Of a stretch of DNA of 64,000 nucleotides, positions 2,003 to 48,778 are shown in pieces. This DNA comes from Candidatus Humicultor tengchongensis (GTDB taxonomy: Bacteria; Sysuimicrobiota; Sysuimicrobiia; Sysuimicrobiales; Humicultoraceae). How positions within the stretch are numbered: the first letter of the stretch is position 1; each line of letters opens with the position of its first letter. The notes beneath the pieces were generated by a model that had not been told where the DNA came from, ran no database searches, and was given only the letters and a program-made list of their open reading frames with translations. The stretch covers positions 596 through 64,595 of the forward strand of contig JAVKIA010000002.1 of assembly GCA_031459715.1 (NCBI GenBank), in the 5' to 3' direction. A program made the position numbers and the translations under genes.

Positions 2003-3130
2003 ATGGACAGACGTAGCATCCGGCGGGCCGCGCTGGTGGCGGGCATTGTTCTGGCCTTGGTGGCGGGCTCGATCGTGCTGGTGCGGGCGCAGGCGGATAT
2101 GCGGGCTCAGTGGGCTCGCTCAAAGCACGCCAACCGGGAGCTGCCCCGCCTGGAGGCGACCGTGGAGCGCCGCGGCGCGCTGGCCGCTCACTGTGGGCGC
2201 TGTCACGCAGAGCAGGGCTACCTGGCCTGGCTGCCGCAACTGGAGGGAGGCAACCCCGGCCTGATCACCAGGCCCGACGGCAGCCCGGCGGACGAGGCCT
2301 ACCTCTCCAGCCTGGGCCTCAACCGCTTCTCCGTGCGACCGGTCACCTGCACCACCTGCCACCAGGCCAACTTCAAGCTGCGGGTCACAGCCACCACCCC
2401 GGTGCTCCCGGCAGGCTTCCGCGCCGTGGGCGTGGGCCTGGGGGCGCAGTGTATGACCTGCCACAATACCCGTAACGGGGCCATCACCTGGAACGCTCCC
2501 GACCCCAGGCGCTACACAGCGCCGCACACAGCGGCACAGGCGGACGTGCTCATGGGCAAGAACGCCTTCTTCGTGCCACCGGCGGAGGCGACCATCTCGC
2601 CCCACGCCACCTTCATCGGCGACGCCTGCGTCACCTGCCACGTGCGCTTCAACAAGGAGAGCCACACCTTCAAGGCGCCGGAGGGAGTGTGCATCCGCTG
2701 CCATGGGGCGGATGTGACCGCGGCGCGCGTGAAAAGCAGCATCGAAACCCTGCTGCACGAGGTGGAGAAGGCCATCGCCTCCCGGGTGATGGCGGCGAAG
2801 GACCGGATTGCCATCATCCGGAACTGGGACCCCCAGACCGACAAGTACACGGACAACTTTAAGGTGGACCCGGCGCAGATCGTCTCGGTGAACCTGGTGG
2901 AGATCCACGGGCAGCAGGGGCTGAAGTTCAACCTGCGCGCCGGCGGGGCCTGGTACAGCCAGCTGGGCAGCGTGGTGGACCCCGCGGGGAAGCCGGTGTT
3001 CGCTACCGGCGATCCCATCGTCCGTGCCGGCTGGAACTTCTTCCTCATCGAGGGCGACGACAGCTTCGGCGTGCACAATCCGCGCTTCGCGCGGACGGTG
3101 CTGCTGGCGACGCTGGACGCCCTGAAGTAG
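2003..3130 (+). CDS. membrane-anchored pentaheme cytochrome c
   Basis: N-terminal hydrophobic anchor (AALVAGIVLALVAGSIVLV). Five CxxCH motifs: CGRCH, CTTCH, CMTCH, CVTCH, CIRCH. Confidence 0.8.
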   Translation: MDRRSIRRAALVAGIVLALVAGSIVLVRAQADMRAQWARSKHANRELPRLEATVERRGALAAHCGRCHAEQGYLAWLPQLEGGNPGLITRPDGSPADEAYLSSLGLNRFSVRPVTCTTCHQANFKLRVTATTPVLPAGFRAVGVGLGAQCMTCHNTRNGAITWNAPDPRRYTAPHTAAQADVLMGKNAFFVPPAEATISPHATFIGDACVTCHVRFNKESHTFKAPEGVCIRCHGADVTAARVKSSIETLLHEVEKAIASRVMAAKDRIAIIRNWDPQTDKYTDNFKVDPAQIVSVNLVEIHGQQGLKFNLRAGGAWYSQLGSVVDPAGKPVFATGDPIVRAGWNFFLIEGDDSFGVHNPRFARTVLLATLDALK

Positions 3131-10218: not shown

Positions 10219-10245
10219 GGGGGAGGGGTGGCCCGCCCCTCCCCC
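10219..10245 (+). terminator. perfect 10-bp G/C hairpin (GGGGGAGGGG-TGGCCCG-CCCCTCCCCC) downstream of cstA; putative intrinsic terminator without a U-tract
   Basis: Read directly from the sequence, 13 nt after the cstA stop. High-GC organisms often lack U-tracts. Confidence 0.4.
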
Positions 10246-10260
10246 GCAGGAGGGATGCGG

Positions 10261-10671
10261 ATGCCCACCCTCGAGGTGGTTACACCCACGCTGACGTACT
10301 TCTTCCACTGCGCCCACTGCGAGACGGCCCTGAGCGTGGCGGGGGTGGGGCAGGTGGTGCACGACCAGGAGATCAACGAGTACCCGGAGGACCTCAAGGA
10401 GCAGTACCTGCAGCTTTGCGATTGGATCCGTGCCCTAGCCGCCCGGCATGCGGGGAGGCTGCGGGTGCGCATCGTGGACGCGTACTCCCCCCGGGGTTTG
10501 TGGATGGCCCTGCGCCACCGCGCCCGCACCTTTCCCCTCTTCGTCCTGGACGGCCGGCGCATCGCCGCCGGGGCCGACCTGGCCAGTGTGGCGGCGTTGC
10601 TGCGGGAGCGGTTCGTCCCCCAGGCGGGAGAGCCGCACGCGGGCGCGCCGCCGGAGGTGAAGAATGCCTGA
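10261..10671 (+). CDS. ArsD-like thioredoxin-fold protein (putative metallochaperone) with a His/Cys motif
   Basis: TYFFHCAHCETALSVAGVG aligns with the ArsD N-terminus (MVFDPAMCCSTGVCG). FPLFVLDGRRIAAG aligns with ArsD LPLLLLDGETVMAG. ATG 10261 after AGGAGGG. Similarity judged by eye. Confidence 0.4.
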   Translation: MPTLEVVTPTLTYFFHCAHCETALSVAGVGQVVHDQEINEYPEDLKEQYLQLCDWIRALAARHAGRLRVRIVDAYSPRGLWMALRHRARTFPLFVLDGRRIAAGADLASVAALLRERFVPQAGEPHAGAPPEVKNA

Positions 10672-10939
10672 AGAGAAGCGGTCCTTCCTCTCGGCCTTCC
10701 GCCGCCAGCTTAAAGATTTCGTCTACGGGATGGCGGCGCACGAGATGACCCGCCACGCCCTGAAGACCCGCGGCAGCATGGAGCACCTTTTCATCCTCAT
10801 CACCATGGGCGACCTGCTGGGCGTGCCCATCCTGCCGCCGTACTACTCGCTGCGCCTGCTGCCCTACGTCGTGCCGCAGATCTCCACCTGGAAGCGGAGC
10901 ATGCTGCGGGAGCGAGACCTGACGGATGCTCTCTCCTGA
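10664..10939 (+). CDS. hypothetical protein (91 aa) translationally coupled inside the ArsA-like module
   Basis: ATG overlaps the upstream stop by 8 nt. No domain recognised (HLFILITMGDLLGVPILPPYYSLRLLPYVVPQIS). Confidence 0.4.
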   Translation: MPEEKRSFLSAFRRQLKDFVYGMAAHEMTRHALKTRGSMEHLFILITMGDLLGVPILPPYYSLRLLPYVVPQISTWKRSMLRERDLTDALS

Positions 10940-11948
10940 ACCCGCGGGCCCCGCCCCCCTGGCCCGCTTCTTCCAGGACTTCCCGCAGCGCCGCTACATC
11001 ATGTTTGGGGGCAAGGGCGGTCTGGGGAAGACGACCTTCTCCGCGGCCACCGCCTACTACCTGGCCCGCCGCGGCCATAAGGTCCTGGTCTTTTCCGTCG
11101 ACCCCCAGGCCTCCCTCTCTGACATCTTCCAGCAGGACATCTACGGCCGGGGCCCCGTGGAGATCATCCCCGGCCTCTTTGCCCAGGAGATCGACGCTGA
11201 CCGGCACATCAAGGAGTACCAGGACCAGATCCGCCGCAAGATCCTGGAGATGTACGGCTTTGACCGCGTGCCCGAGGAGATCGAGCACTACATCGCTGCG
11301 GCCTCAGCGGAGCCGGCCATGGAGGAGAGCGCTATCTTCGACCAGGTGGTGGACATCGTCGTGGCCGGTCAGTACGACTACTTCATCTACGACCTGGTCC
11401 CGCTGGGCCACGCCCTTTACTACCTGAGCATGGCCAGCGTCTACGACGAGTGGATCGAACGCATCACCCGGCTGCGCCAGGAGATGCAGCAGTATGCGGA
11501 GATGGCTGCCCGCTTCAAGGGGGAGCAGTTGCAGGAGGACCTGATCCTTCAGGAGTTGCAGGACATCCGGCAGCGCATCACCACCAGCAGCCGCATCCTC
11601 ACCGACCAGGCCAGAACGGCGTTCTTCTTCGTCATCATCCCCGAGGAGATGGTCCTGCTGGACACGCAGAAGGCGGCGCAGCTCTTCTCCCGCTTCCAGG
11701 TCCCCATCAGCGGGTACATCGTCAACCGCGTCCTGCCCGAGGCCCTGGCCAAGGAGCAGATTCCCGACTATCTGCAGCACCGGCTCCAAATGCAGCAGGG
11801 CTACCTGCACAAGATCAGCGACCTCTTTGGCGGGCAGGTGCTGGCCTGGATTCCTGAGTTCGAGCGGGACGTCACCGGGCTGGAGATGATCGCGCGCATG
11901 GCCGAGGCCATGTTTGGGGGAGACGGGGGTGAGCCTGCAGACCGCTAG
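10926..11948 (+). CDS. ArsA/Get3-family P-loop ATPase, cysteine-free
   Basis: Deviant Walker A FGGKGGLGKTT. DLVPLGHALYYL matches the ArsA DTAPTGH-like signature position. 340 aa with no Cys residue at all. Confidence 0.8.
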   Translation: MLSPEPAGPAPLARFFQDFPQRRYIMFGGKGGLGKTTFSAATAYYLARRGHKVLVFSVDPQASLSDIFQQDIYGRGPVEIIPGLFAQEIDADRHIKEYQDQIRRKILEMYGFDRVPEEIEHYIAAASAEPAMEESAIFDQVVDIVVAGQYDYFIYDLVPLGHALYYLSMASVYDEWIERITRLRQEMQQYAEMAARFKGEQLQEDLILQELQDIRQRITTSSRILTDQARTAFFFVIIPEEMVLLDTQKAAQLFSRFQVPISGYIVNRVLPEALAKEQIPDYLQHRLQMQQGYLHKISDLFGGQVLAWIPEFERDVTGLEMIARMAEAMFGGDGGEPADR

Positions 11949-12954
11949 CGCCACCTGGGAGGACCTGGTGGAGGAACCGCTCTCTGCCGTCATCGAGGCC
12001 CGCCCCACCCTGAAGTACCTCTTCTTTGGCGGCAAGGGCGGGGTGGGCAAGACGGTGCTGGCCGGAGCGGCGGCCCTGGGACTGGCCCGGCGGGGGCGGC
12101 GCGTCCTGCTGGTCTCCACCAACCCGGTACACAGCCTCAGCGGGCTGCTGGACCAGGACGTCTTCGGCCGGGTCACCCCGGTGCGGGGAGGGGAGGGGTT
12201 GTGCGCACTGGAGATCGACACCCGGGAGACCATCGAGCGGTCCAAGCGGGAGATCAAGGAGAAGATCGACTGGTTCCTCAAGTACGCCGAGATCCGCACC
12301 CGGGCCGACGCCTTCGTGGAGTCCGCCACCATGAACCCGGCCTTCGAGGAATCGGCCATGTTTGAGAGCATGATTGACGTGATCTTCCGCGGCGAGTACG
12401 AGGTCTACGTCTTTGACACCGCCCCCACGGCCAACGCCCGCAGGCTGCTGGGGATGTCCGCCGTCTACTCCATGTGGGTGCAGAAGATGGTGCAGAGCCG
12501 GGAAGAGGCCCGTTCCCTGCGGCGGCTCCTCTCGTACAGCAAGCAGGAGGAGGCCGACCCGCTGCTGGACTACCTGCTGCACTTCCGCGACCGCATCGCT
12601 GCCGCCAAGCGGCTGCTCACCGACACAGGTCTGACAGCCTTCTTCTTCGTCACCCTGCCCGAGGCACTGCCCATCGCCGTGGTGCGCCGCTTCATCTCCT
12701 GGTTCCAGGACTTCGGTATCCCCATCGGCGGCGTCATCGTCAACGGCGTGATCGACCGGGCCATGGTCCCCGACACCGCTCCCCCCTTCGTCCTCAACCG
12801 CATCGCCGCCCAGGAGACCTACCGGGAGGAGATCAGGCGGACCTTCCCCGGCATGGTCCGCGCCGTCATCCCCCTCTTCGAGACCGAGGTGCGCGGCGTG
12901 CCCATGCTGGAGCGGGTGGCCCGCGTGCTCTTCGCCCCGGGTGCGGGCCCATGA
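11914..12954 (+). CDS. ArsA/Get3-family P-loop ATPase, second paralog
   Basis: FFGGKGGVGKT Walker A. FDTAPTANARRLL is a signature variant lacking the His. Single Cys. Overlaps the first ATPase gene. Confidence 0.8.
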   Translation: MGETGVSLQTASATWEDLVEEPLSAVIEARPTLKYLFFGGKGGVGKTVLAGAAALGLARRGRRVLLVSTNPVHSLSGLLDQDVFGRVTPVRGGEGLCALEIDTRETIERSKREIKEKIDWFLKYAEIRTRADAFVESATMNPAFEESAMFESMIDVIFRGEYEVYVFDTAPTANARRLLGMSAVYSMWVQKMVQSREEARSLRRLLSYSKQEEADPLLDYLLHFRDRIAAAKRLLTDTGLTAFFFVTLPEALPIAVVRRFISWFQDFGIPIGGVIVNGVIDRAMVPDTAPPFVLNRIAAQETYREEIRRTFPGMVRAVIPLFETEVRGVPMLERVARVLFAPGAGP

Positions 12955-13445
12955 CCATGCACCTGCTGGAGGCGTTCAACCCCATCGTCGGCCGCACGGC
13001 GTTCGTTGGACTCTTCCTCCCCGAACCCTGGCGCCTCAGCCGTGCCGTGGTCACGCCGGACGTGCAGACCACGGTGCGGGAGGGAGAGCAGCAGTGGGTG
13101 GCCTCGGGCGAGACCCGGCACGTGCTCGTCCACGGGGTGCGGCGGACGGAGCGCGCCGACCTGATGGTGCGCGTCACCCCGGGTGCTGCCCGCCGCCCCC
13201 TGGCCTCGCGAGTGGGAGCAGAGAGTGGGGCCCTCACCGTGGGCGGCCATCCCGGGGAGTTCCACCTGGGGCGGCGGCGAGACGGATGGTTCACCGCCCG
13301 GATGGTGCCCGTGGTGCGGGTACGCACCTACTGCCCGCGCACCCGGCGAACGGTCCTGCTGGAAGTCACCGGCCAGCTCCCACCCGAGGAGCTGAGGGCC
13401 CTGCTGGACGCATTCCAGCGGATAGCGTGCCACAGCGGGCCCTGA
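12951..13445 (+). CDS. hypothetical protein (164 aa) coupled to the second ArsA-like gene by an ATGA overlap
   Basis: ATG 12951 overlaps TGA 12952-12954. No domain recognised. Confidence 0.5.
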   Translation: MTMHLLEAFNPIVGRTAFVGLFLPEPWRLSRAVVTPDVQTTVREGEQQWVASGETRHVLVHGVRRTERADLMVRVTPGAARRPLASRVGAESGALTVGGHPGEFHLGRRRDGWFTARMVPVVRVRTYCPRTRRTVLLEVTGQLPPEELRALLDAFQRIACHSGP

Positions 13446-13503
13446 GGGCTGAAGCGAGGTTCGGGCGGCGCTCCGGCGGCTCCACCGCTGCACGAGGCTA
13501 GCG

Positions 13504-14886
13504 ATGCACTACCCCTGGTGGCACGTCCCCTTCCTCACGGCGCCGATGCTCATCGCCATTGTCGCGGTCCTCCACGTCCTGGTGGCGCACTACGCCGTGG
13601 GCGGGGGGCTCTTCCTGGCCGCGGAGACCACCTACGCCTACCGCAGCCACAACCTCCGCTACCTGGACTACCTGCGGCAGCACGCCTGGTTCTTCATCCT
13701 GCTGACCGTGGTCTACGGGGCCATCACCGGAGCGGGCATCTGGTGGACCATCGGCCTGGCCTCCCCCCTGGCCACGGAGAGCCTGATCCACATCTTCGTC
13801 TTCGGCTGGGCCATGGAGTACGTCTTCTTCGTCCTGGAGATTGTCTCGGCGTTCATTTTCTACTACTTCTGGGGGCGGCTGCCGACCCGGACGCACCAGA
13901 CAACAGGCTGGATCTACGCCGTCTCGGCCTGGATCAGCCTGGTACTGATCACCGGCATCACCGGCTTCATGCTCAACCCGGGCGCCTGGCCGCAACGGCA
14001 GAGCTTCTGGGTGGGGTTCTTCAACCCGCAGTTCCTCCCTCAAGTCGCCGCCCGCACGGGCGGCGCCTTCCTCCTGGCGGCGCTCTACGTCTACCTGCAC
14101 GCGGCCTTCAAGGTCAAAGACCCTGCACTGCTGCGCCTGATCGAGCAGCGCTCCGCCCGGCCGGCGCTGCTGGGCAGCATCCTGGTCATTTTGGGCGGGG
14201 CGGGCTGGTACCTCTTCCTGCCGGCCTCGGCGCGCGCGGCGCTGGCCGCGGCCAGCGTCCTCAACGTCCTGATGGTGTGGCTCTTCGCCATCACCGTGGC
14301 GGTCTTCGCCATGCTCTACCTGGGCCCGTACCGCCACCCCGGCTGGCTCTCTCCCGGGTTCGCCCTCCTCTTCCTCGGCCTGGGTCTGGCCGCGGTGACC
14401 ACGGGCGAGTACGTCCGCGAGGCGGTGCGCAAGCCGTTCATTATCTACAACCTGGTCCTGGGCAACCAGATCCTTCCCGCCCAGATGCCCCGGCTGCGGG
14501 CGGCGGGCATCCTGCAGGAGGGGGTCTGGCCCCGCGCCTTCGTGGCCACCCACTACCCGCACCTGCTGCGCCAGGGTCGGGTGGACCAGAAAGGACTGCT
14601 GGGGTTGCCCCAGGCTGACCAGGTACTGCTGGGAGAGGTCCTCTTCATGCACGCCTGCAACGACTGCCACACCTCCAGCTCCGGCTTCTCCGCGCTGCGC
14701 AACCTGATGCGCGGGTGGACCCCGGAGATGGTGCGGACTGTCACCGAGCATCCGGAGCGGGTGCACTTCTTCATGCCGCCATGGACCGGCACAAAGGCCG
14801 AATCCCGCCTGCTGGAGCAGTACCTGCGGACGCTGGTGCTGCCCTCCCCTGTGGAACTGCCTGAGCCGATGGGAGGCCGGCGGTGA
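13504..14886 (+). CDS. cytochrome bd (CydA)-like membrane oxidoreductase subunit with C-terminal monoheme cytochrome c domain
   Basis: Multi-TM. AVLHVLVAHYAVGGGLFLAAE (compare the CydA His19 region). WAMEYVFFVLEIVSAFIFYY (compare CydA ALEGLMAFFLESTFVGLFFF with two conserved Glu). C-terminal CNDCH heme c motif. Assignment by eye. Confidence 0.5.
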   Translation: MHYPWWHVPFLTAPMLIAIVAVLHVLVAHYAVGGGLFLAAETTYAYRSHNLRYLDYLRQHAWFFILLTVVYGAITGAGIWWTIGLASPLATESLIHIFVFGWAMEYVFFVLEIVSAFIFYYFWGRLPTRTHQTTGWIYAVSAWISLVLITGITGFMLNPGAWPQRQSFWVGFFNPQFLPQVAARTGGAFLLAALYVYLHAAFKVKDPALLRLIEQRSARPALLGSILVILGGAGWYLFLPASARAALAAASVLNVLMVWLFAITVAVFAMLYLGPYRHPGWLSPGFALLFLGLGLAAVTTGEYVREAVRKPFIIYNLVLGNQILPAQMPRLRAAGILQEGVWPRAFVATHYPHLLRQGRVDQKGLLGLPQADQVLLGEVLFMHACNDCHTSSSGFSALRNLMRGWTPEMVRTVTEHPERVHFFMPPWTGTKAESRLLEQYLRTLVLPSPVELPEPMGGRR

Positions 14887-16004
14887 ATCCCGCCGACCTG
14901 GTCGCCCCGGCCAGCCCCCTGGGGTTCCCCGCCCCCTACTGGTTCCTGGTCCTGCTCAAGGTGGCGGGCTTCACCTTGCACATGGGGCCGATGCACCTGT
15001 GGACCGCCGGGCTGCTGGTGGCCCTGCTGTTGACCCGCCGCCCCGATGCGCACGCCCGGCTGCTGGGGGAGCGGCTGATCGCTCAGCTTCCCGTGGTAAT
15101 CGCCCTGGGGATCAACTTCGGCATCGTCCCTCTGCTGTTTCTCCAGGTGGCCTACTACCGCGTCTTCTATCCGGCCACGGTGCTGGCAGCCTGGTCCTGG
15201 TTCGCTGTCATCCCTCTGCTGGTGCTGGCCTATTATGGCGTCTACCTGTGCGCGGGGGACCTGCGGCAGGCGCGGTCGGGCGGCCTGCGCCGTCTGGTCG
15301 GCTGGGTGGCTGCGGCGGCCTTCCTGGCCATCGGCCTGGCGTTCGTCAACGGGATGACGCTCATGACGCGGCTGGAGGCCTGGCCCGACCTGTGGCGGGC
15401 CACCAGCCGGGCCGGCGCACCTCTGGGAACCGCCCTCAACCTCTCCGACCCCAGGCTGCTGCCGCGCGGGCTGATGATGCTGGCCCTGGCGCTTGTTACC
15501 ACGGCCGCCTACGCAGTGGTGGACGCGGGGCTCTTCGCCCGCGGTCTCCCGGCGGCCTACCGCCGCTGGGTGGCCGGCTTCGCCCTGCGCCTGGCTACCA
15601 TTGGGGTGGTAGGGTTCGCCATTTTCGGATCCTGGTACGCCTTCGCCACCTGGTCGGCGGAGGCGCGAGGGGTGATGCTGGGCCGGCTGGCCCCGCTCAC
15701 CGCGGCCACCGCCGCCGCGCCGGCCCTTCCCTGGCTGCTCATCGCCAGGCAGCGCCGCGGCCCCACCCCGGGCGCGGCTCTGGCCACCGGGCTGGCACAG
15801 CTTGGTGTCCTCGCCCTGAACGCCACCAGCCGGCAGGTGGTGCAGAACCTGGAGCTGGCCCGCTTCCTGGATGTGGCCGCCGAGCCGGTGCGGACCCAGT
15901 GGAGCCCGCTGGTCGTCTTCCTGCTCCTCCTGGCCGGCGGCATGGGGGTGATCCTGTGGATGGTGGGCAGGGCCAGGAGCATCCTGCGCCCGGTACCTCA
16001 CTGA
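14883..16004 (+). CDS. polytopic membrane protein, probable partner subunit (CydB/CydA'-like) of the bd-like oxidoreductase
   Basis: GTG 14883 overlaps TGA 14884-14886. About 9 hydrophobic helices. No other motif. Confidence 0.5.
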   Translation: MNPADLVAPASPLGFPAPYWFLVLLKVAGFTLHMGPMHLWTAGLLVALLLTRRPDAHARLLGERLIAQLPVVIALGINFGIVPLLFLQVAYYRVFYPATVLAAWSWFAVIPLLVLAYYGVYLCAGDLRQARSGGLRRLVGWVAAAAFLAIGLAFVNGMTLMTRLEAWPDLWRATSRAGAPLGTALNLSDPRLLPRGLMMLALALVTTAAYAVVDAGLFARGLPAAYRRWVAGFALRLATIGVVGFAIFGSWYAFATWSAEARGVMLGRLAPLTAATAAAPALPWLLIARQRRGPTPGAALATGLAQLGVLALNATSRQVVQNLELARFLDVAAEPVRTQWSPLVVFLLLLAGGMGVILWMVGRARSILRPVPH

Positions 16005-16375
16005 TCGTCTACCGACCGATCGGGTATGTGGAGAACGCCTTTGACCAGCCCGTGGCCCCGGAAGTCCTCCTGGCCGCCACATCCCGCATCGTCCTCGACC
16101 CGGCGCTGGTCGAAGGGCTGGCGGGTATCGAGCCAGGGCAGCGGCTCATGGTCGTCTTCCACTTCCACCGCGCGGGCGGATACAAGCTGCAGCAGCACCC
16201 GCGGGGGGACCCCGGCCGGCCGCGCCAAGGTGTCTTCACCCTGCGCAGCCCCCACCGTCCCAACCCCATCGGCGTGACGGTGGTTGAGGTGCTGGCTGTC
16301 CAGGGCCACATCCTCACCGTGCGCGGGCTGGACGCCATCAACGGCACCCCCGTACTGGACCTGAAGGCCGAGTAG
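16001..16375 (+). CDS. TrmO/TsaA (YaeB)-family SAM-dependent tRNA methyltransferase N-terminal domain protein; start codon noncanonical
   Basis: PIGYVENAFDQP...FTLRSPHRPNPIGVTVVEVL...GLDAINGTPVLDLK matches the TrmO fold signature. No in-frame ATG/GTG/TTG before the conserved PIGYV; CTG at 16001 overlaps the upstream TGA (CTGA). Confidence 0.55.
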   Translation: MIVYRPIGYVENAFDQPVAPEVLLAATSRIVLDPALVEGLAGIEPGQRLMVVFHFHRAGGYKLQQHPRGDPGRPRQGVFTLRSPHRPNPIGVTVVEVLAVQGHILTVRGLDAINGTPVLDLKAE

Positions 16376-34428: not shown

Positions 34429-37400
34429 GTGAGCCTGTCGGTGCCGGAAGGACAGGAGGGCGCGCCCGCGGCGGATCGCACCCTCCCGGTGGGTGCGGTC
34501 ATGGTTGTGGGCGGGGGGATCGCCGGTATCCAGGCGGCCCTCGACCTGGCCGACGCGGGGATCAAGGTCTACCTGGTGGAGCGCGCCCCGGCCGTCGGCG
34601 GGCGCATGGCCACGCTGGACAAGACCTTCCCCACCAACGACTGTGCCATGTGCATCCTTTCCCCCAAGCTGGGGGCGGTGGGGCGGCATCCCAACATCGA
34701 GATCTTGACGCTGGCGGAGCTGGAACGTCTGGAGGGAGTCCCGGGGGACTTCCGCGCCACCGTGCGGCGCCGGCCCCGGTTCGTCGATCCTGCCCTGTGC
34801 ACTGGCTGCGGCGACTGCGCCGCCGTCTGCCCGGTGCGGGTGCCCAGCGAGTTCGACGGCGGCCTGGCAGCGCGCACGGCCGTCTACCGGCTCTATGCGC
34901 AGGCCGTCCCCGGGGCCTACGCCATCGAAAAGCGCGGCCGCTCCCCCTGCCGCGACGCCTGCCCCATCCACCAGCGGGCGCAGGGGTACGTGGCACTGGT
35001 GGCCCAGGGGCGCTACGCGGAGGCGTTCCGCGTCATCCGCATGGACAACCCCTTTCCGGGGATCTGCGGGCGCGTCTGCAACCACCGCTGCGAGGACGCC
35101 TGCTCGCGTGGTCAGGTGGACGGGGCGGTGAACATCGCCGCCCTCAAGCGCTTCGTGGCGGACTGGGCCTACGCTCTACCCCGTCAGCCGGTGTCCCGCC
35201 TGACCCCCACGCGCGCTGAGCGGGTGGCCGTGGTGGGGTCGGGGCCCGCCGGCCTGACTGCGGCCAGAGACCTGGCGGCGCTGGGCTACGCGGTCACCGT
35301 CTTCGAGGCCCTCCCGGTGCCCGGGGGGATGATGCGCGTGGGCATCCCGGAGCACCGCCTGCCTGCGCCCATCGTCGAGCGGGAAATCGCCGACATCCTG
35401 GACCTGGGGGTGGAGCTGCGCTGCAACACCCGCGTAGGCCACGTGCGCGAGCTTTTTGCCGCCGGGTACGCCGCCGTCTTCCTGGCCACGGGGGCGCACC
35501 GCGCGCGCAGGCTGCCCCTCCCCGGCGCACACCTGCCGGGCGTGCTGGTAAGCACCGACGTCCTGCAGAACCACCGCCTGGGCAAGCCCGTACCCCTGGG
35601 CCAGCGGGTGCTGGTGCTGGGCGGCGGCAACGTGGGCTTCGACGTGGCCCGCACCTGCCTGCGGCTGGGCGCGCGGGAGGTGCACGTGGCCTGCCCGGAG
35701 GCGCGGGAAGCGATGCCGGCGCACCCGTGGGAGATTGCGGCGGCCGAGGAGGAAGGCGTGCAGGTCCATCCTTCGACGGCGTTCGTCCAGGTCGTCGAGC
35801 AAGACGGTCGCGCGACCGGCCTCCTCTGCCGCCGGGTCCGCTCCATGCACTTCGACGAGGCGCGGCGCCTCCACCTGGAGGTGGTCGAGGGCAGCGAGCA
35901 CCTGCTGGAGGCGGACACCATCGTTTTCGCCATCGGCCTGGCCCCGGACCTGGACCTGGTGCGGGGGCTGGAGGGGATCTCCACCACGCCCTGGGGGTCG
36001 CTGCAGGTGGACCCGCTCACCCAGGCCACCGGGTATCCGGGCCTCTTCGCCGGCGGGGACGTGACCACGGGGACGGCCTTCGTCGTGGACGCCATCGCCG
36101 CCGGCCACCGGGCGGCGCGGGGCATTGATGCCTACCTGCGGGGCATCGCCCTCCAGCCCGAACAGGCCGTCCGGGTGGCGAAGCTGACCCCTGAGGAAAT
36201 AGCCACGCGCCTGGCCCGCGGGCAGATCCGGCGGCAGCCGCGCCTGGCCGTGCACGTCCTGCCGCCGGAGGTGCGGCGCGCCTCCTTCATGGAGGTGGAA
36301 CGGGGCTTCACGGAGGAGGAGGCGCGGCGGGAGGCCTCGCGCTGTCTGGCCTGCGGTGTCTGCGCCGAGTGCCTGGAGTGCGTCCTGGCCTGCAAACGGA
36401 ACGCCATCAACCACGCCGAGCAGGAGCGAGTGGAGACCTACCGGGTGGGCGCGGTCATCCTCGCCGCCGGGGTGGAGCCCTTCGATGCCCTCCAAGCGGA
36501 GGCCTACGGGGTGGGTCGCTTCCCCAACGTCCTGGTCGGGCCACAGTTCGAACGGCTGCTTTCCGCCTCCGGCCCCACCCAGGGCCACATCCGGCGTCCC
36601 TCCGACGGGACGGAACCGAAGCGCATCGCCTTCCTCCAGTGCGTCGGGTCCCGCGACCAGCGCACCCGCTACTGCTCCGCGGTGTGCTGCATGTACGCCA
36701 CCAAGGAGGCGATGCTGGCCCGCGAGCACCTGCCGCAGGCCCAGGTGACCGTCTACTACGCCGACATGCGCGCCTTCGGCAAGGGCTTCGACGCCTACGT
36801 GGAGCGGGCGAAGCAGCAGGGTGTCCGCTACGTGCGCACGCGAGTGGCGGTACTGCGGGAAGACCCGCGGACGAGGAACCTGCGCTTCCGCGTGGAGGAG
36901 AACGGGAAGGTGCGGGAGGAAGAGGCCGACCTGGTGGTCCTCTCCGTGGGCCTGACCGCCCCCCGCGGTGCCGCGGAGCTGGCCCGCACCGCCGGGGTCG
37001 ACCTGAACCAATACGGCTTCGCCGCCACCGCCTCTCTGAGTCCTGTGCGCACCTCACGCCCGGGGGTCTTCGTCGCCGGGGGGTTCCGCGGCCCCAAGGA
37101 CATCCCCGACTCGGTGGTGGAGGGCAGCGCCGCCGCCGCAGCGGCCCTGGCGCTCCTGGCGCCGGCGCGCGGCACGCAGATCAACCCCAAGGTCTACCCG
37201 CCGGAGATGGTGCTGGACCCACAGCCGCGCATCGGCGTCTTTGTCTGTCACTGTGGCTCCAACATCGCCGGAGTGGTGGACGTGCAGGGCCTGGCCGCTT
37301 CTGCCCGCACGCTGCCCGGAGTGGTGCTGGCGGAGACCTCCCTGTACAATTGCTCCGCCGACAGTCTGGAGCGGATCAAGCAGGCCATCGCCGCAGACCA

Positions 37401-38913
37401 CCTCAACCGGGTGGTGGTGGCCAGCTGCACCCCCCGAACCCACGAGCCCATCTTTCGCCAGGCGCTGCGCGAGGCCGGGCTGAACCCCTACCTCTTCGAG
37501 ATGGCCAACATCCGTGACCAGTGCAGCTGGGTGCACGGGGCCGACCCGGCTGCGGCCACGGAGAAGGCGCGGGCCCTGATCGCTGCGGCGGTGGCCCGGG
37601 CGGCGCGACTCGCCCCGCTGCACAAGGTCCCCGTGCCCGTGCGGCACGAGGCCCTGGTCATCGGCGGGGGGATCGCCGGACTCACCGCCGCGCTCAACCT
37701 GGCCGACCAGGGCTTCCCGGTGACGGTGGTGGAGCGGGAGCCCGCGTTGGGCGGGCGGCTGCGGGCTCCTCTGGTAACCTGGGACGGCTCCCACCCGGGG
37801 AGCGCGCTGCAGGCCCTGGTCGACCGGGTGACGGCCCACCCTCTGATTACGGTGCTCACCGGGCACCAGGTGGTCGCCTCCCGGGGCACGGTGGGTAACT
37901 TTGAGACCGCGGTGGCCGGGCCGGGGGGCGAGCGGGTCCTAAGACACGGAGCGACCATCGTGGCCACGGGCCTGCGGGAGTGGCGGCCGGTCCCCTACGG
38001 CGTGGGCGAGGACCCGCGAGTGCTCACCCTGGCGGAGTTCGAGCGCGAGCTGGCCGGGGCGGCGCCGCCGGACGGCGGCGCCGCCGCATCGGTGGTCATG
38101 CTGCTGTGCGCCGGGCCGTGGGATCGCATGCCCTTCTACTGCAGCCGCACCTGCTGCGCCCAGTCACTGGCCGCTGCGCTGGCTTACCGCCGCGCCCACC
38201 CGCAGGCTTCGGTAGCTATCCTGGCGCGCGAGATCCGCACCTACGGGTTCGGGGAGGAAGTCTACCTGGAGGCGCGCCGCGCCGGCGTCCAGGTCTTCCG
38301 CTACGCGCCGGACGACCCGCCGCAGATCTCCCGCACGCCGCAGGGGATCACGGTGACGGTGCGCGACCAGACCCTGGGGGAGGAGGTCACCCTGAAGGCG
38401 GACCGGCTGATCATCTCCCCTGCGTTGATACCCGCAGAAGGCGCGGACGAGCTCTCCACGACCTTCAAAATCCCTGCGACCGCGGAAGGCTTCTTCCTCG
38501 AGGCCCACGTGAAGCTGCGCCCTGTAGACTTCGCCAGCGAAGGGCTCTTCCTCTGCGGGGGGGCGCACTACCCCAAGCCCGTGGGGGAGGCCGTCGCCAG
38601 CGCCCTGGCCGCCGCTGCCCGCGCGGGGACGCTGCTGTGGCGGGACAGCCTGGAGGTGGGGGGCGTGGTGGCCACGGTCGACCGGGACCGCTGCACCTCC
38701 TGCCTGACCTGCCTGCGCCTGTGTGCCTACGACGCCGTCTCCTTCGACGGAGACGGCATTGCGGTGGTCGACCCGGCGCGCTGTCAGGGGTGCGGTCTGT
38801 GCGTGGCCGCCTGCCCCGGGGCCGCCCTTACCCTGACCCACTACACGCGGGAGCAGATGCTGGCCAAGATCGACGCGCTCCTGGGGGCGCCGGAGGCCGC
38901 CCATGCCAGCTGA
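34429..38913 (+). CDS. HdrA-like large flavoprotein (HdrL type): HdrA FAD/Fe-S modules duplicated, with an inserted GltD/NfnB-like NAD(P)H-binding module and a C-terminal ferredoxin domain
   Basis: 1494 aa, GTG start after GGAGGCGG. VVGGGIAGIQAALDLA; GltD-like CPIHQRAQGYV...RVAVVGSGPAGLTAA and VLVLGGGNVG; HdrA thioredoxin-like Cys clusters CVGSRDQRTRYCSAVCCMY and LLCAGPWDRMPFYCSRTCC; second ALVIGGGIAGLTAAL; C-terminal CTSCLTCLRLC and CQGCGLCVAACP. Confidence 0.8.
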   Translation: MSLSVPEGQEGAPAADRTLPVGAVMVVGGGIAGIQAALDLADAGIKVYLVERAPAVGGRMATLDKTFPTNDCAMCILSPKLGAVGRHPNIEILTLAELERLEGVPGDFRATVRRRPRFVDPALCTGCGDCAAVCPVRVPSEFDGGLAARTAVYRLYAQAVPGAYAIEKRGRSPCRDACPIHQRAQGYVALVAQGRYAEAFRVIRMDNPFPGICGRVCNHRCEDACSRGQVDGAVNIAALKRFVADWAYALPRQPVSRLTPTRAERVAVVGSGPAGLTAARDLAALGYAVTVFEALPVPGGMMRVGIPEHRLPAPIVEREIADILDLGVELRCNTRVGHVRELFAAGYAAVFLATGAHRARRLPLPGAHLPGVLVSTDVLQNHRLGKPVPLGQRVLVLGGGNVGFDVARTCLRLGAREVHVACPEAREAMPAHPWEIAAAEEEGVQVHPSTAFVQVVEQDGRATGLLCRRVRSMHFDEARRLHLEVVEGSEHLLEADTIVFAIGLAPDLDLVRGLEGISTTPWGSLQVDPLTQATGYPGLFAGGDVTTGTAFVVDAIAAGHRAARGIDAYLRGIALQPEQAVRVAKLTPEEIATRLARGQIRRQPRLAVHVLPPEVRRASFMEVERGFTEEEARREASRCLACGVCAECLECVLACKRNAINHAEQERVETYRVGAVILAAGVEPFDALQAEAYGVGRFPNVLVGPQFERLLSASGPTQGHIRRPSDGTEPKRIAFLQCVGSRDQRTRYCSAVCCMYATKEAMLAREHLPQAQVTVYYADMRAFGKGFDAYVERAKQQGVRYVRTRVAVLREDPRTRNLRFRVEENGKVREEEADLVVLSVGLTAPRGAAELARTAGVDLNQYGFAATASLSPVRTSRPGVFVAGGFRGPKDIPDSVVEGSAAAAAALALLAPARGTQINPKVYPPEMVLDPQPRIGVFVCHCGSNIAGVVDVQGLAASARTLPGVVLAETSLYNCSADSLERIKQAIAADHLNRVVVASCTPRTHEPIFRQALREAGLNPYLFEMANIRDQCSWVHGADPAAATEKARALIAAAVARAARLAPLHKVPVPVRHEALVIGGGIAGLTAALNLADQGFPVTVVEREPALGGRLRAPLVTWDGSHPGSALQALVDRVTAHPLITVLTGHQVVASRGTVGNFETAVAGPGGERVLRHGATIVATGLREWRPVPYGVGEDPRVLTLAEFERELAGAAPPDGGAAASVVMLLCAGPWDRMPFYCSRTCCAQSLAAALAYRRAHPQASVAILAREIRTYGFGEEVYLEARRAGVQVFRYAPDDPPQISRTPQGITVTVRDQTLGEEVTLKADRLIISPALIPAEGADELSTTFKIPATAEGFFLEAHVKLRPVDFASEGLFLCGGAHYPKPVGEAVASALAAAARAGTLLWRDSLEVGGVVATVDRDRCTSCLTCLRLCAYDAVSFDGDGIAVVDPARCQGCGLCVAACPGAALTLTHYTREQMLAKIDALLGAPEAAHAS

Positions 38914-39331
38914 GCCGCAGATCGTCGCCTTCTGCTGCTTCTACTGCGCCTACGCTGCGGCCGACCTGGCCGGCGTGATGCGCCTCTCCTACCCGCCCAA
39001 TGTGAGGGTCGTCCTCCTGCCGTGCACCGGGGCGATCGACCCCCTCTACGTCCTGCGGGCCTTCGAGGACGGCGCCGACGGGGTCTTCGTCGCCGGGTGC
39101 CTGGAAGGACAGTGCCACTACCAGGTGGGCAACCTGCACGCAAAGAGCCGGGTGCAACGCCTGAAGGCCCTGCTGGACGAGGCCGGCATCGGTGGAGAGC
39201 GCCTGGAGATGTTCAACCTCTCCTCGGCGCAGGGGCCGCGCTTCGCCGAGGTGGCCAGGGAGATGACCGCGCGCATTACCGCGCTGGGGCCCTCGCCCCT
39301 GAACCGGGCGCGGGCGGAGGTGGCGCCGTGA
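38903..39331 (+). CDS. mvhD: methyl-viologen-reducing hydrogenase delta subunit-like protein
   Basis: IVAFCCFYCAYAAADLAG...LPCTGAIDP...VAGCLEGQCHY matches the MvhD signature. 142 aa. Confidence 0.85.
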   Translation: MPAEPQIVAFCCFYCAYAAADLAGVMRLSYPPNVRVVLLPCTGAIDPLYVLRAFEDGADGVFVAGCLEGQCHYQVGNLHAKSRVQRLKALLDEAGIGGERLEMFNLSSAQGPRFAEVAREMTARITALGPSPLNRARAEVAP

Positions 39332-40731
39332 GCACTTTAGGGGTTACCACCACTGGACGTGCTGCTGCCCCTGGTGGGGCTGCTACAACCGGGCCTGGAC
39401 GCCCCGGGCTCTCTTTGGCCGAGGAGGTCCGCCGGGAGAGTGGCCAGGACCTCTCGCTCTGCTTCCAGTGCAAGGTCTGTACCAGCGGCTGTCCGCTGGC
39501 CGGAGTCATGGATCTGGCCCCCCACGCCGTGGTGCGCGCGCTGCAGCTGGGGCGGGAGGAGCGGCTGCTGGCCGCCAACAGCTTCTGGATCTGCGCCTGC
39601 TGCCAGGCCTGCACGGCCCGCTGCCCCCAGGGGATCGACCTGGCCCGGGTCATGGACGCGCTGCGCATGGCGGCCAGGCGACGGCGCGTGCGCGCCGCCG
39701 TGCCGGAAGCGCCCATCTTCACCCAGGCGGCGGTGCGCTCCATCCACCTCTTCGGCCGCCTCTACGAGGCCGGCGTGGGGCTGGAGATCAACCTGCGCAC
39801 CCGCCGCCCCCTGCGCCAGCGACAGATGGCCCTGCGCATGCTGCGCGCGGGGAAGCTCCGCCTCCTCCCCGAGCGGGCGGGCCGCGCGGTGCGCCGTCCG
39901 GCCCCGGCAGGGGCCATCGCCTACTACCCCGGCTGCGCCCTGCACGCCAGCGCCCGCGAGTACGACATTTCCGCCCGGGCCACCTGTGCGGCCCTGGGCC
40001 TGCAGCTCCAGGAGATCCAGGGGTGGCGCTGCTGCGGGACCACCGCCGCGCACCAGTGGTCGCACCGGCTGGCCGTGGAGCTGCCGCTGGCGAACCTGGC
40101 GCTGGCGGCGCGGGACGGCTTCTCCACCGTTACCGCCCCCTGCGTGGCCTGCTTCTCCCGCCTGCGCCACGCCCAGGCTGAGGTCCCGGATCGGGCTCCC
40201 AGCGGGCTGCGGGTCCAGCACCTGCTGCACACCTTCCTGGAAGTCGGGACGGCAGCCATCCGCTCCCGGGTGAGGCGGCCGCTGCGCGGGCTGCGCGTGG
40301 CCTGTTACTACGGGTGCCTCCTCACCAGGCCGCCGCAGGTTACCGGGGCCACCCACCCGGAGAACCCCAGGGAGATGGAGGAGCTGGTCGAGGCTCTGGG
40401 AGCGGAGGCGGTGTCCTGGTCGTACAAGACCGAGTGCTGCGGCGCGGGGCATGCACTGGTGCGGCCGGACCTGGTCGTCGACCTGGTCGGCCGTATCCTC
40501 GCCGACGCCCAGGCGGCCGGCGCGGAGGCGCTGGCGGTGGCCTGCCCTCTGTGCCAGCACAACCTGGACGTCCGCCAGGAGGAGGCGGTGCGCGTTGCTG
40601 AACTTCCTGCCATGCCGGTCTTCTTCTTCACGCAGCTGGTGGCTCTGGCCTTCGGTCTGGAGACACAGGCGGCGCTGGACCGGCTGCTGGTGGACCCTCG
40701 GCCGCTGCTGCGTATGCGCGGGCTGATCTGA
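39328..40731 (+). CDS. heterodisulfide reductase HdrC-HdrB fusion (two 4Fe-4S then two CCG domains)
   Basis: CFQCKVCTSGCP and CACCQACTARCP (HdrC). CCG-domain motifs YYPGCALHAS, WRCCGT, CYYGCLLTRP, KTECCGAGH (HdrB). GTGA overlap with mvhD. Confidence 0.8.
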   Translation: MSTLGVTTTGRAAAPGGAATTGPGRPGLSLAEEVRRESGQDLSLCFQCKVCTSGCPLAGVMDLAPHAVVRALQLGREERLLAANSFWICACCQACTARCPQGIDLARVMDALRMAARRRRVRAAVPEAPIFTQAAVRSIHLFGRLYEAGVGLEINLRTRRPLRQRQMALRMLRAGKLRLLPERAGRAVRRPAPAGAIAYYPGCALHASAREYDISARATCAALGLQLQEIQGWRCCGTTAAHQWSHRLAVELPLANLALAARDGFSTVTAPCVACFSRLRHAQAEVPDRAPSGLRVQHLLHTFLEVGTAAIRSRVRRPLRGLRVACYYGCLLTRPPQVTGATHPENPREMEELVEALGAEAVSWSYKTECCGAGHALVRPDLVVDLVGRILADAQAAGAEALAVACPLCQHNLDVRQEEAVRVAELPAMPVFFFTQLVALAFGLETQAALDRLLVDPRPLLRMRGLI

Positions 40732-41373: not shown

Positions 41374-42321
41374 GTGGCGGACGTCATCGACGGGGCGGCT
41401 ATCGCCGAGGAGCTGAAGGCGGAGCTGCGGGCGGAGGTGGCGGCGCTGGCAGAGCGGGACACCACTCCCGGTGTGGCTACGGTGCTGGTGGGTGAGGACT
41501 ACGGGGCGAAGATGTACCGCCGCCAGATTGAGCGCCTGGCGGCAGAGGTAGGGCTGGCCTACCGCGACGTCACCCTGCCCGGGCAGTCGCCCCTGGAGGA
41601 CGTTCTGACCAGTGTGCGCGCCCTCAACCAGGACCCGGGGGTGCACGGGATCCTCCCTCTGCGGCCCTTGCCCAAAGGGATGGAGGGGCCGGTTCTGGAG
41701 GCCCTCCACCCGGCCAAGGACATCGACTGTCTACACCCCATCAACGCGGGCAGGCTGGCCCTGGGCCAGCCCTCCGTCTACCCGGCCACCCCCTGGGCCT
41801 GCTATGTGCTCCTGGAGCGGTACTTCGCCCGGAAGGGTCTGGACCCGAAGACCGTCTTCGAGGGCAAGGAGCTGGTCATCGTGGGGCGCAGCAACATCGT
41901 GGGCAAGCCGGCCTACTTCCTGGCCCTGGAGCGCAACGCCACCACCACCACCGTCCACTCCTTCACCTGGCGGGCCGGCAACCTGCCGGCGCACACGCGG
42001 CGGGCGGACATACTCATCGTGGCCATGGGGAAGGCGGAGTTCATCAAAGGCGACATGGTGAAGCCCGGGGCGGTTGTGGTGGACGTGGGGATCAACATGA
42101 TCCCTGTGCTGGACGCATCCGGCAATCCCGTGGTGGACGAGAAGGGACGCCCCAGGCGCAAGACGGTGGGCGATGTGGCCTTCGAGGAGGTGAAGGAGGT
42201 GGCCGGGGCCATCACCCCGGTGCCCGGAGGCGTGGGCTCGGTGACCAACGTCCTGCTGATGAGGAACGTCGTACGGGCAGCGGCCGCGGCTGCCGCCGCG
42301 GCGCAGGTGGGTGGACGATGA
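41374..42321 (+). CDS. folD: bifunctional methylene-THF dehydrogenase/methenyl-THF cyclohydrolase
   Basis: IDGAAIAEELKAELRAEVA, VLVGEDYGAKMYRR (Tyr-x-x-x-Lys), GILPLRPLP, VIVGRSNIVGKP. GTG start. Confidence 0.9.
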   Translation: MADVIDGAAIAEELKAELRAEVAALAERDTTPGVATVLVGEDYGAKMYRRQIERLAAEVGLAYRDVTLPGQSPLEDVLTSVRALNQDPGVHGILPLRPLPKGMEGPVLEALHPAKDIDCLHPINAGRLALGQPSVYPATPWACYVLLERYFARKGLDPKTVFEGKELVIVGRSNIVGKPAYFLALERNATTTTVHSFTWRAGNLPAHTRRADILIVAMGKAEFIKGDMVKPGAVVVDVGINMIPVLDASGNPVVDEKGRPRRKTVGDVAFEEVKEVAGAITPVPGGVGSVTNVLLMRNVVRAAAAAAAAAQVGGR

Positions 42322-47016: not shown

Positions 47017-47088
47017 CAGCCCTCCCCTGAAGTTCCCTTCAGGTTCCACAGCTCCGTCGCCGGTCTGACGACGACGCTGGTGGGGCAT

Positions 47089-47565
47089 ATGCGTGTGGTG
47101 CGGACTGTGGAGCGCGACGGGCAAGGAGAAGGATTCAGCAGCCTGGAGCTGGTGCTGGCCCTGGCGCTGCTCGCCCTGGCGCTGGTCATCCTGGTCCCGC
47201 GGCTGTCGCCCCGGCCTCTCTACCTGACCGCGGACGCGCAGGAGCTCGCGGCCAACCTGAAGGTGGCACGCAGCTTCGCCATGAGCCGTTCCACGCACTA
47301 CCAGGTGCGTGTGGCCAGCACCACTCAGTACGTGCTGGAGCGTGGAGAGCTGACAGGCAGCGTGTGGACGTTCCCCGTGATCGAGCGCACGGTGACGCTG
47401 CGGCCGGGGGTTACCTTCAGCGGCGCAGACGTGGGCAAGGCGGTCAGCTTCGACAGCCGGGGCCGGGTGGTCGGGCCGGAGGTGACTTTCACCCTGGCCG
47501 ACGGAGCGCGGGGTTGGACGCAGCAGGTCGTGGTGCGGGTAACCGGGCTGGTGGAGGTGCCATGA
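47089..47565 (+). CDS. type IV pilin-like minor pilin/pseudopilin (prepilin N-terminal cleavage-methylation domain)
   Basis: Leader MRVVRTVERDGQGEG then FSSLELVLALALLALALVILV (G|FxxLE motif). Confidence 0.7.
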   Translation: MRVVRTVERDGQGEGFSSLELVLALALLALALVILVPRLSPRPLYLTADAQELAANLKVARSFAMSRSTHYQVRVASTTQYVLERGELTGSVWTFPVIERTVTLRPGVTFSGADVGKAVSFDSRGRVVGPEVTFTLADGARGWTQQVVVRVTGLVEVP

Positions 47566-47951
47566 GGCGGGGCAGGCGGCGGCCCGGCCAGGGGGGATTT
47601 ACCGTCCTGGAGGTGCTGCTGGCGCAGCTGGTCTTCGCCTTCGTGGTCGCCTCCACGGCGGCGCTGCACCTGGCCGCCATGACCCAGGGGGCGGTCAGCC
47701 GCCGCGCGGTGGAGGCGGCGGCGCTGGCCCAGGAGGAGCTGGAGCAGATCCGGGACATGCCCTACAACCAGATCCTCTCGGTGGGCCCGACACCGCGTAC
47801 GGTGGGCGCGCACACTTACGTGCTGGAGCGTGTGGTCACGACCGATGATCCGGCGGCCAACATGAAGCGCATCCGGGTCATAGTCACCTGGAACATCCGA
47901 GGATCACGGACCTATGTGGCGGAGACGATCTTCACCAGCCTGGCCCAGTAG
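47562..47951 (+). CDS. minor pilin, PilV/GspI-like
   Basis: MRRGRRRPGQGG|FTVLEVLLAQLVFAFVVAST prepilin motif. 129 aa. Confidence 0.7.
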   Translation: MRRGRRRPGQGGFTVLEVLLAQLVFAFVVASTAALHLAAMTQGAVSRRAVEAAALAQEELEQIRDMPYNQILSVGPTPRTVGAHTYVLERVVTTDDPAANMKRIRVIVTWNIRGSRTYVAETIFTSLAQ

Positions 47952-48765: not shown

Positions 48766-48778
48766 GAGGCGGAGACGG

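Follow-up and report, generated by a model that had tools for sequence, protein, structure and literature searches.

Here we describe a pair of adjoining genes, A and B, within a 64,000-nucleotide stretch of Candidatus Humicultor tengchongensis DNA (assembly GCA_031459715.1, contig JAVKIA010000002.1, positions 596 to 64,595), referred to below as the window. Protein A is a homologue of the cytochrome bd subunit CydA that ends in a cytochrome c domain, protein B is its membrane-embedded partner, and together they almost certainly form a member of the OR-C1a/OR-C1b family of the cytochrome bd superfamily. A preliminary description of this DNA had noted genes for products of 460 and 373 residues that overlap by GTGA, the second product having about nine helices; both open reading frames (ORFs) were found exactly as described, and nine helices are predicted for protein B from its AlphaFold2 (AF2) model and from hydropathy. 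The features of the locus, numbered from the first nucleotide of the window, are as follows (TM, transmembrane; aa, amino acids).

13494..13497, forward strand: Shine-Dalgarno-like GAGG, six nucleotides 5' of the gene A ATG (read off the sequence)
13504..14886, forward strand: gene A, OR-C1a-type CydA homologue; ORF of 460 aa with an ATG start, eight predicted TM helices and a C-terminal cytochrome c domain
13573..13575, forward strand: His24 codon, equivalent by hhalign to CydA His19, axial ligand of the active-site heme
13816..13839, forward strand: Glu105 to Glu112 codons, equivalent by hhalign to CydA Glu99 and Glu107 of the proton channel and active site
14407..14436, forward strand: motif E302-x-x-R305-E306-x-x-R309-K-P311 at the periplasmic end of TM8 (hidden Markov model, HMM, alignments)
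14521..14838, forward strand: predicted periplasmic class-I cytochrome c domain, about aa 340-445 of protein A (PF13442 and profile matches)
14656-14670, forward strand: CNDCH codons, aa 385-389
14773-14775, forward strand: codon of the Met424 ligand
14871..14886, forward strand: coupling junction, GGGAGG followed by the gene B GTG overlapping the gene A TGA (GTGA)
14883..16004, forward strand: gene B, OR-C1b-type subunit II; ORF of 373 aa with a GTG start, heme-c-free
14979..14981, forward strand: His33 codon of protein B, aligned by hhalign with protein A His24 and CydA His19

Read from the sequence, the GTGA overlap is a standard translational-coupling junction, and the start assigned to gene B gives a protein N-terminus that agrees with the homologue consensus. 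Third-position GC content is 0.93 in gene A and 0.90 in gene B, a coding-type composition for a genome of 70% GC. Promoter and terminator scans were uninformative.

Protein A residues 16-220 match the Pfam family of cytochrome bd subunit I (PF01654) with E 4e-15, scoring 55.8 bits against a curated cut-off of 26.2 bits. A profile of 36 diverse homologues sharing 29-72% identity (A3) aligned in one continuous stretch with CydA of Geobacillus thermodenitrificans in the PDB (5DOQ_A; profile 11-320 to chain 8-392, E 7.7e-15), and also matched the Escherichia coli bd-II and mycobacterial CydA chains, while hhalign of protein A with E. coli CydA gave 88%. With the AF2 model of protein A (predicted local distance difference test score, pLDDT, 72.6; predicted template-modelling score, pTM, 0.65), the best ten Foldseek matches in the PDB were all CydA (query template-modelling score, TMq, 0.44-0.58), and CydB chains came next. 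Diverse alignments were needed because profiles of close homologues alone were too shallow: A1 matched cytochromes c only, A2 matched nothing, and hhalign of A1 with A2 gave 1.5%. Single-sequence phmmer searches of proteins A and B against the PDB returned nothing relevant. On the strength of the family, profile and fold matches protein A is a CydA-family subunit, and the significant alignment to CydA agrees with the CydA-like character first ascribed to it.

The active-site residues of CydA can be traced through protein A. His24, within AVLHVLVAHYAV, aligns with E. coli CydA His19, and Glu105 and Glu112, within AMEYVFFVLEIVSAF, align with Glu99 and Glu107, at a spacing one residue shorter than in E. 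coli, as in qOR3. Further along the channel, H131 and S145 correspond to CydA His126 and Ser140 in the same hhalign comparison. Conservation was counted over 150 representative clusters at 50% identity, each denominator being the representatives that cover the site: H24 is conserved in 122/128, E105 and E112 in 131/138 each and H131 in 119/137, and position 145 is Ser in 116 and Thr in 13 of 138.

A further set of active-site residues lies at the end of TM8. HMM alignments against CydA of G. thermodenitrificans, CydA of E. coli and AppC of E. coli bd-II place E306, R309 and P311 opposite Glu445, Arg448 and Pro450 of the CydA motif W441-x-x-x-E445-x-x-R448-Q-P450, with Trp441 replaced by Glu (E302). 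Glu445 of CydA is the ligand of the second active-site heme, and its equivalence with E306 is well supported by these alignments. The motif is retained throughout the family (E302 in 107/111, E306 in 103/111, R309 in 109/111 and P311 in 109/110), and the mapped active-site and channel residues as a whole are conserved at 87-99%.

The other end of the canonical electron path is missing. The loop between TM6 and TM7 has about 13 residues and no Q-loop, the position of CydA His186 is occupied by Ala183, followed by a near-invariant R184 (129/133), and a search for a Met393 equivalent across the 150 clusters found no conserved Met. His199, a candidate for the His186 equivalent in the close clade, was dropped, as it is kept in 27/129 representatives family-wide. 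Thus, of the heme ligands that the preliminary description had named for comparison, the equivalents of His19, Glu99 and Glu107 are retained and those of His186 and Met393, which bind heme b558, are not. Because both the Q-loop and the b558 ligands are gone, we conclude that the quinol-oxidation site has been lost from protein A.

In its place, beyond TM8, protein A carries what appears to be a mono-heme cytochrome c domain. Pfam PF13442 matches residues 376-430 weakly, and homologue profiles of protein A match, by their C-terminal part, c6, c552, CcoP and bc1 cytochrome c chains with E down to 1.7e-8. C385 and C388 of the CNDCH motif are each conserved in 94/94 clusters and H389 in 93/94, and the Met of an MPPW motif, Met424, present in 90/90, aligns with the known Met ligand of class-I cytochromes c; the c-type heme domain anticipated from the CNDCH motif is thus matched by class-I cytochrome c profiles. 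Hydropathy and the AF2 model agree on eight helices. The mean count of Lys and Arg is 11.2 in the loops assigned to the cytoplasm and 2.8 on the opposite side (13.2 and 3.2 in a diverse set), a positive-inside distribution that gives an N-out topology and so predicts that the residues after TM8, including CNDCH 385-389 and Met424, are periplasmic. Solved CydA structures have the same N-out orientation. A cytoplasmic location of the CxxCH segment, which would have precluded heme attachment, is not borne out.

Searches of Pfam and NCBIfam assign protein B to no family, even when 31 homologues are included and the threshold is relaxed to E 10, and the 670 homologues found are all annotated as hypothetical. 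Its AF2 model (pLDDT 82.6, pTM 0.85) has cytochrome bd subunits, both CydB and CydA, as its best 17 Foldseek matches in the PDB (TMq 0.53-0.67). Compared by hhalign with the protein A family, protein B gave 94.9% and E 4.8e-8 with close homologues, and 97.6% and E 3e-12 when the profile also took in 61 distant homologues. Neither protein B nor 30 of the 31 aligned homologues matched the CydB family PF02322 at a threshold as loose as E 10. An hhalign comparison with E. coli CydB gave 0.4-0.5%, and comparisons with single E. coli CydA and CydB sequences were uninformative; with CydB only the fold is common. By these profile comparisons protein B is a heme-c-free paralogue of protein A, so that the second polytopic subunit of the preliminary description gains a more specific identity.

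The residues that protein B keeps differ from those kept by protein A. His33 is conserved in 76/76 close and 60/60 distant homologues that have a residue at this position (136/136). Both channel glutamates are lost, E105 of protein A lying opposite a gap and E112 opposite Ile110. E306 lies opposite Gln318; among the distant homologues this position is Asp in 37/61 and forms part of an R-D-x-x-R motif. A ninth, C-terminal helix (340-367) stands where CydA has TM9, and the C-terminus is predicted to be inside.

This architecture has a precedent in the phylogenomic study of Murali, Gennis and Hemp (2021; bioRxiv 10.1101/2021.01.16.426971), which divides the bd superfamily into qOR, OR-C and OR-N. 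There, OR-C1a is described as a CydA homologue of eight TM helices that lacks a quinol site and bears a C-terminal periplasmic heme c extension, and OR-C1b is an adjoining paralogue, stated to have 8 TM helices; cytochrome c is proposed as the donor. Table S7 of that study lists mono-heme OR-C1a with a heme-free "hypothetical" OR-C1b in Hydrogenobacter, Thermocrinis, Thermoanaerobaculum, D. vulgaris DP4 and others, and Table S6 gives for the OR-C1a reference H24, E105, E112, S145, H131, Y121 and W80, enters F183 where CydA has His186, and shows a dash for each of Met393, Glu445 and Trp441. The A-B pair shares with these the CydA homologue of eight helices, the C-terminal periplasmic CxxCH, the absence of a quinol site and the adjoining heme-c-free paralogue, and in protein A the seven residue numbers are identical. 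Our assignment to OR-C1 was made because every defining feature of the family that could be tested was found, and it matches the earlier suggestion that a fused c-domain marks one of the poorly characterised bd-like families.

Several details depart from the published account of OR-C1. The host, a hot-spring metagenome-assembled genome (MAG) labelled Sysuimicrobiota or Armatimonadota, is outside the examples named by Murali et al., and protein B has nine predicted helices where they state eight, ours being a prediction only. E306, R309 and P311 are aligned here with Glu445, Arg448 and Pro450, whereas Table S6 has a dash, and the His126 equivalent H131, poorly conserved according to Murali et al., is kept in most of our representatives.

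Comparison with the canonical CydAB oxidases (qOR1-3; PDB 6RKO, 6RX4, 5DOQ, 7NKZ) separates what has been kept from what has been replaced. Both subunit folds, the N-out topology and the two-gene operon are common to the two systems, as are, in protein A, the TM1 His, the two channel Glu, Ser140, His126 and Glu445-x-x-Arg-x-Pro. The ligand residues for hemes b595 and d are likewise conserved. Unlike CydAB, the pair is without the Q-loop and the His186 and Met393 ligands, and hence without heme b558 and a quinol site. The cytochrome c domain stands where subunit I of CydAB has its TM9, and the second subunit, instead of being a CydB of the PF02322 family, is a paralogue of CydA and retains the TM1 His. 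No CydX-like gene was seen.

Parallels can also be drawn outside the canonical enzymes. In CydAA' (qOR4a/qOR4b) of Caldivirga maquilingensis, subunit II is likewise a duplicated CydA that has lost the channel glutamates and kept the His19 equivalent, but qOR4a has the b558 ligands, oxidises quinol and has no heme c domain, and the duplication is independent. The OR-N bd-like oxidases of Nitrospirota and others are also CydA-derived, lack a quinol site, conserve only the active-site core of the first four helices and presumably use alternative electron donors; they differ in having 10-14 TM helices and no fused heme c, and in operons that usually include PetABD-like or cytochrome c subunits, whereas the pair here is autonomous. 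Heme-copper oxidases with a built-in cytochrome c (CcoP of cbb3, subunit II of caa3) provide the analogy of a tethered class-I domain that replaces a diffusible carrier, and CcoP chains are among the profile matches of the protein A C-terminal domain. Their catalytic subunit is, however, unrelated, and the A-B pair is copper-free and would work by charge separation rather than pumping.

The family is widely distributed. More than 1400 homologues of protein A were found, and the best 120, at 65-93% identity, are labelled as many different phyla. An exhaustive scan of the cluster representatives returned 865 clusters (50% identity; E <= 1e-3), with lengths up to about 930 aa and 0-8 CxxCH motifs; in the distant OR-C clade (loci L117-L134 and others) many relatives have about 850-880 aa. 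Among GTDB species representatives, 303 genomes carry close relatives, the best matches all being MAGs, from Armatimonadota/Sysuimicrobiota, Acidobacteriota, Chloroflexota, Zixibacteria, Bipolaricaulota, Planctomycetota and others. Protein A is conserved to an unusual degree, being 60-74% identical among relatives labelled Planctomycetota, Chloroflexota, Acidobacteriota, Bipolaricaulota, Zixibacteria and Armatimonadota, in a genomic context that is nearly always different. Such identity across phyla suggests strong constraint, frequent horizontal transfer of a two-gene cassette, or both.

Genes A and B stay together across this range, adjoining each other in 76/79 close and 60/77 distant loci (136/156), with exceptions mostly on truncated contigs; the order is A-B in the close clade and mostly B-A in the distant one. 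A conserved third gene (a small subunit, a donor cytochrome or a maturation factor) was sought in 132 loci, and none recurred in more than 15; the most recurrent neighbours, at that maximum of 15/132, are regulators and ABC transporters. Because no other neighbour recurs, the pair can be thought of as a self-contained module that needs only a generic donor.

Based on these comparisons, we suggest, as a reading more probable than not but well short of certain, that the A-B pair is an oxidoreductase with a cytochrome c-type donor that reduces O2 at a di-heme site with cytoplasmic protons. Uncertainty centres on O2 as the substrate and cytochrome c as the donor, and the heme types, too, we infer. 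Proteins A and B would pair as a heterodimer like that of CydA and CydB. The fused heme c (His389/Met424) would be reduced by a soluble donor in the periplasm, in the simplest case a cytochrome c; it would take the role of heme b558 as the point of electron entry and pass electrons to the hemes ligated by His24 and Glu306. There O2 would be reduced to water, cytoplasmic protons arriving by way of H131, S145, E112 and E105. Since the reaction would use cytoplasmic protons and periplasmic electrons, turnover would be electrogenic and would generate a membrane potential without pumping.

The preliminary description had favoured O2 detoxification or an alternative acceptor over a respiratory oxidase on the premise that the organism is a Wood-Ljungdahl anaerobe. 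Sysuimicrobiota (CSP1-3) are predicted to be facultative anaerobes with coxABC, and in Humicultoraceae the CODH/ACS (carbon monoxide dehydrogenase/acetyl-CoA synthase) genes of the Wood-Ljungdahl pathway are described as acquired by horizontal transfer (PMC11604079). The window, for its part, encodes succinate dehydrogenase/fumarate reductase and two pentaheme cytochromes c. On both counts the premise is shaky. In this host, which has CODH/ACS, the enzyme would serve as a copper-free, high-affinity O2 scavenger or as a microaerobic oxidase, and the position of the locus beside genes for the O2-sensitive CODH/ACS hints at a protective role.

A number of observations count against an O2-reducing, cytochrome c-linked enzyme. 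The literature searched contained no biochemical or structural study of any OR-C enzyme. The AF2 model of protein A is only moderate in confidence (pLDDT 72.6), and the linker that joins TM8 to the heme c domain is modelled with low confidence. For the second heme ligand, a profile of the TM7-TM8 fragment had E. coli bd-II AppC as its best PDB match, but at E 1.1, and Table S6 of Murali et al. gives no Glu445 equivalent for OR-C1a (10.1101/2021.01.16.426971). Neither Ccm, System II nor CydDC genes were found within the 64-kb window. Strict anaerobes (such as Desulfovibrionia, Thermodesulfovibrio and Bipolaricaulota) commonly carry members of the family. Finally, the Sulfurospirillum multivorans homologue SMUL_0150 is 39.5-fold up in cells adapted to pyruvate fermentation and about 8-fold higher in fermentative than in respiratory metabolism (PMC6242987), behaviour unlike that of a plain aerobic oxidase.

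As to heme maturation, the window encodes two c-type cytochromes with five CxxCH each and MtrC/c7/c3-like Pfam matches (2003-3130 and 54885-55505, both forward strand). Their presence implies that the organism makes c-type hemes, and so that a maturation system exists. They are also candidate periplasmic redox partners. A rhodanese gene follows the second of them.

The abundance of relatives in strict anaerobes and the strong rise of SMUL_0150 during fermentation would both be accommodated if the same architecture reduced another small oxidant (H2O2, NO, peroxynitrite or similar) and acted as a stress-defence reductase drawing on periplasmic electrons. Canonical bd oxidases handle H2O2, NO and peroxynitrite, and some relatives of the pair adjoin ECF (extracytoplasmic function) sigma/anti-sigma pairs, universal stress proteins or two-component regulators. 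However, the conserved set His19, Glu445, Glu99, Glu107, Ser140 and His126 is the O2-reduction and proton-delivery apparatus of the bd enzymes, no sequence feature is specific to another substrate, and scavenging of trace O2 explains the anaerobes equally well. We therefore regard a different oxidant as unlikely, if still a serious proposal.

A related proposal gives protein B a larger part. It may bind a heme of its own, because His33 is universal, with Met37 one turn away, and because the distant clade has an Arg-Asp-x-x-Arg version of the Glu445 motif. The complex might then be pseudo-symmetric, with four hemes, and in anaerobes have a physiological oxidant other than O2. This we offer tentatively, as a minority possibility; the rise of SMUL_0150 in fermenting cells would fit a non-O2 oxidant.

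It is less probable still that no oxidant is reduced inside the complex. The pair would then be a quinol-linked electron conduit, akin to a small bc1 or ACIII substitute, in which electrons move between the quinone pool and the membrane hemes, perhaps at a site in protein B, and heme c passes them to periplasmic partners. Relatives with up to 8 CxxCH do resemble periplasmic electron wires, and CydB of the solved bd oxidases holds a structural quinone. The universal His33 and the Asp at the Glu445 position in distant relatives would likewise allow protein B to bind a cofactor. Against this, the superfamily has no known quinol site other than the one formed by the Q-loop and the b558 ligands, all of which are deleted here, and strict conservation of the channel Glu and of Ser140/His126 makes little sense without proton-consuming chemistry. 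Least plausible by far is a decayed bd oxidase with no catalytic role: heme b558, the Q-loop and TM9 have been lost and subunit II has no Pfam family, but conservation effectively refutes it, since both proteins are intact, with coding composition and dozens of invariant columns, cross-phylum identity is 60-93% (A) and about 51-91% (B), homologues occur in 303 species-level genomes, and the Sulfurospirillum homologue is detected, at changing abundance, in proteomes (PMC6242987).

The immediate surroundings of the pair are shared with few other genomes. A sister MAG with 93% identity is fully syntenic with the window, and in the MAGs of Ca. Fervidifonticultor, which is also placed in Humicultoraceae, Sysuimicrobiota (CSP1-3), only the A-B pair is common. 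Directly 5' of gene A (10228-13445, forward strand) lies a tight cluster of overlapping genes comprising a 147-aa ORF, a DUF7990 protein (91 aa), two ArsA/GET3-type ATPases (340 and 346 aa) and a 164-aa ORF; the sister MAG at 93% identity is the only other genome in which it accompanies the pair. The cluster could serve in the insertion of tail-anchored proteins or metals. The 164-aa ORF, which has no family, was considered as a partner of the pair and rejected; it goes with the ArsA-like genes and is common only to the near-identical sister MAG. At the other end, a 139-aa ORF with a TrmO_N domain (15956-16375, forward strand) overlaps the 3' end of gene B by 49 nucleotides. It is missing from the otherwise syntenic sister MAG (L013), in which 171 nucleotides separate gene B from an adenosine-kinase-like gene.

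Further features were noted elsewhere in the window, all on the forward strand. An EB_dh domain protein (ethylbenzene dehydrogenase gamma-like, heme b; 31-666), truncated at the start of the window, points to a periplasmic molybdoenzyme complex, of the Nar/Nxr type or another, immediately upstream. At 34429-40731 there is a 1494-aa HdrA-like fusion flavoprotein, which contains several FAD/NAD and 4Fe-4S domains, and after it an HdrB/C-like protein with a CCG domain, among methyl-branch Wood-Ljungdahl genes (FTHFS, MTHFR with a C-terminal-domain protein, FolD and cyclodeaminase); this is probably an electron-bifurcating module of the MetFV-Hdr type. A formate dehydrogenase alpha subunit gene (44116-47016), adjoining a NuoF-like gene (42318-44084) and 2Fe-2S/4Fe-4S domains, is split by one in-frame TGA (45256-45258) in the context CARL-TGA-HAPSVAGL. 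This is the classic selenocysteine position, and the gene probably encodes a selenocysteine-containing FdhA. GspH/pilin-like genes follow (47080-50986), the last encoding a 735-aa protein without a Pfam family; the set also occurs on one short Logan contig (L012).

To our knowledge, all characterised cytochrome bd oxidases are quinol oxidases. The idea of OR-C enzymes has already been published as a genomic prediction, to which the A-B locus adds one more example. To the OR-C1 model our analysis adds the retained Glu445/Arg448/Pro450 motif with Trp441 replaced by an invariant Glu, the proposed substitution of heme c for heme b558, and an autonomous pair that extends across two divergent clades with a universal His33 in subunit II. 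If the prediction is true, OR-C would be the first cytochrome c-dependent, copper-free type of terminal oxidase, one that is widespread and has many anaerobes among its hosts.

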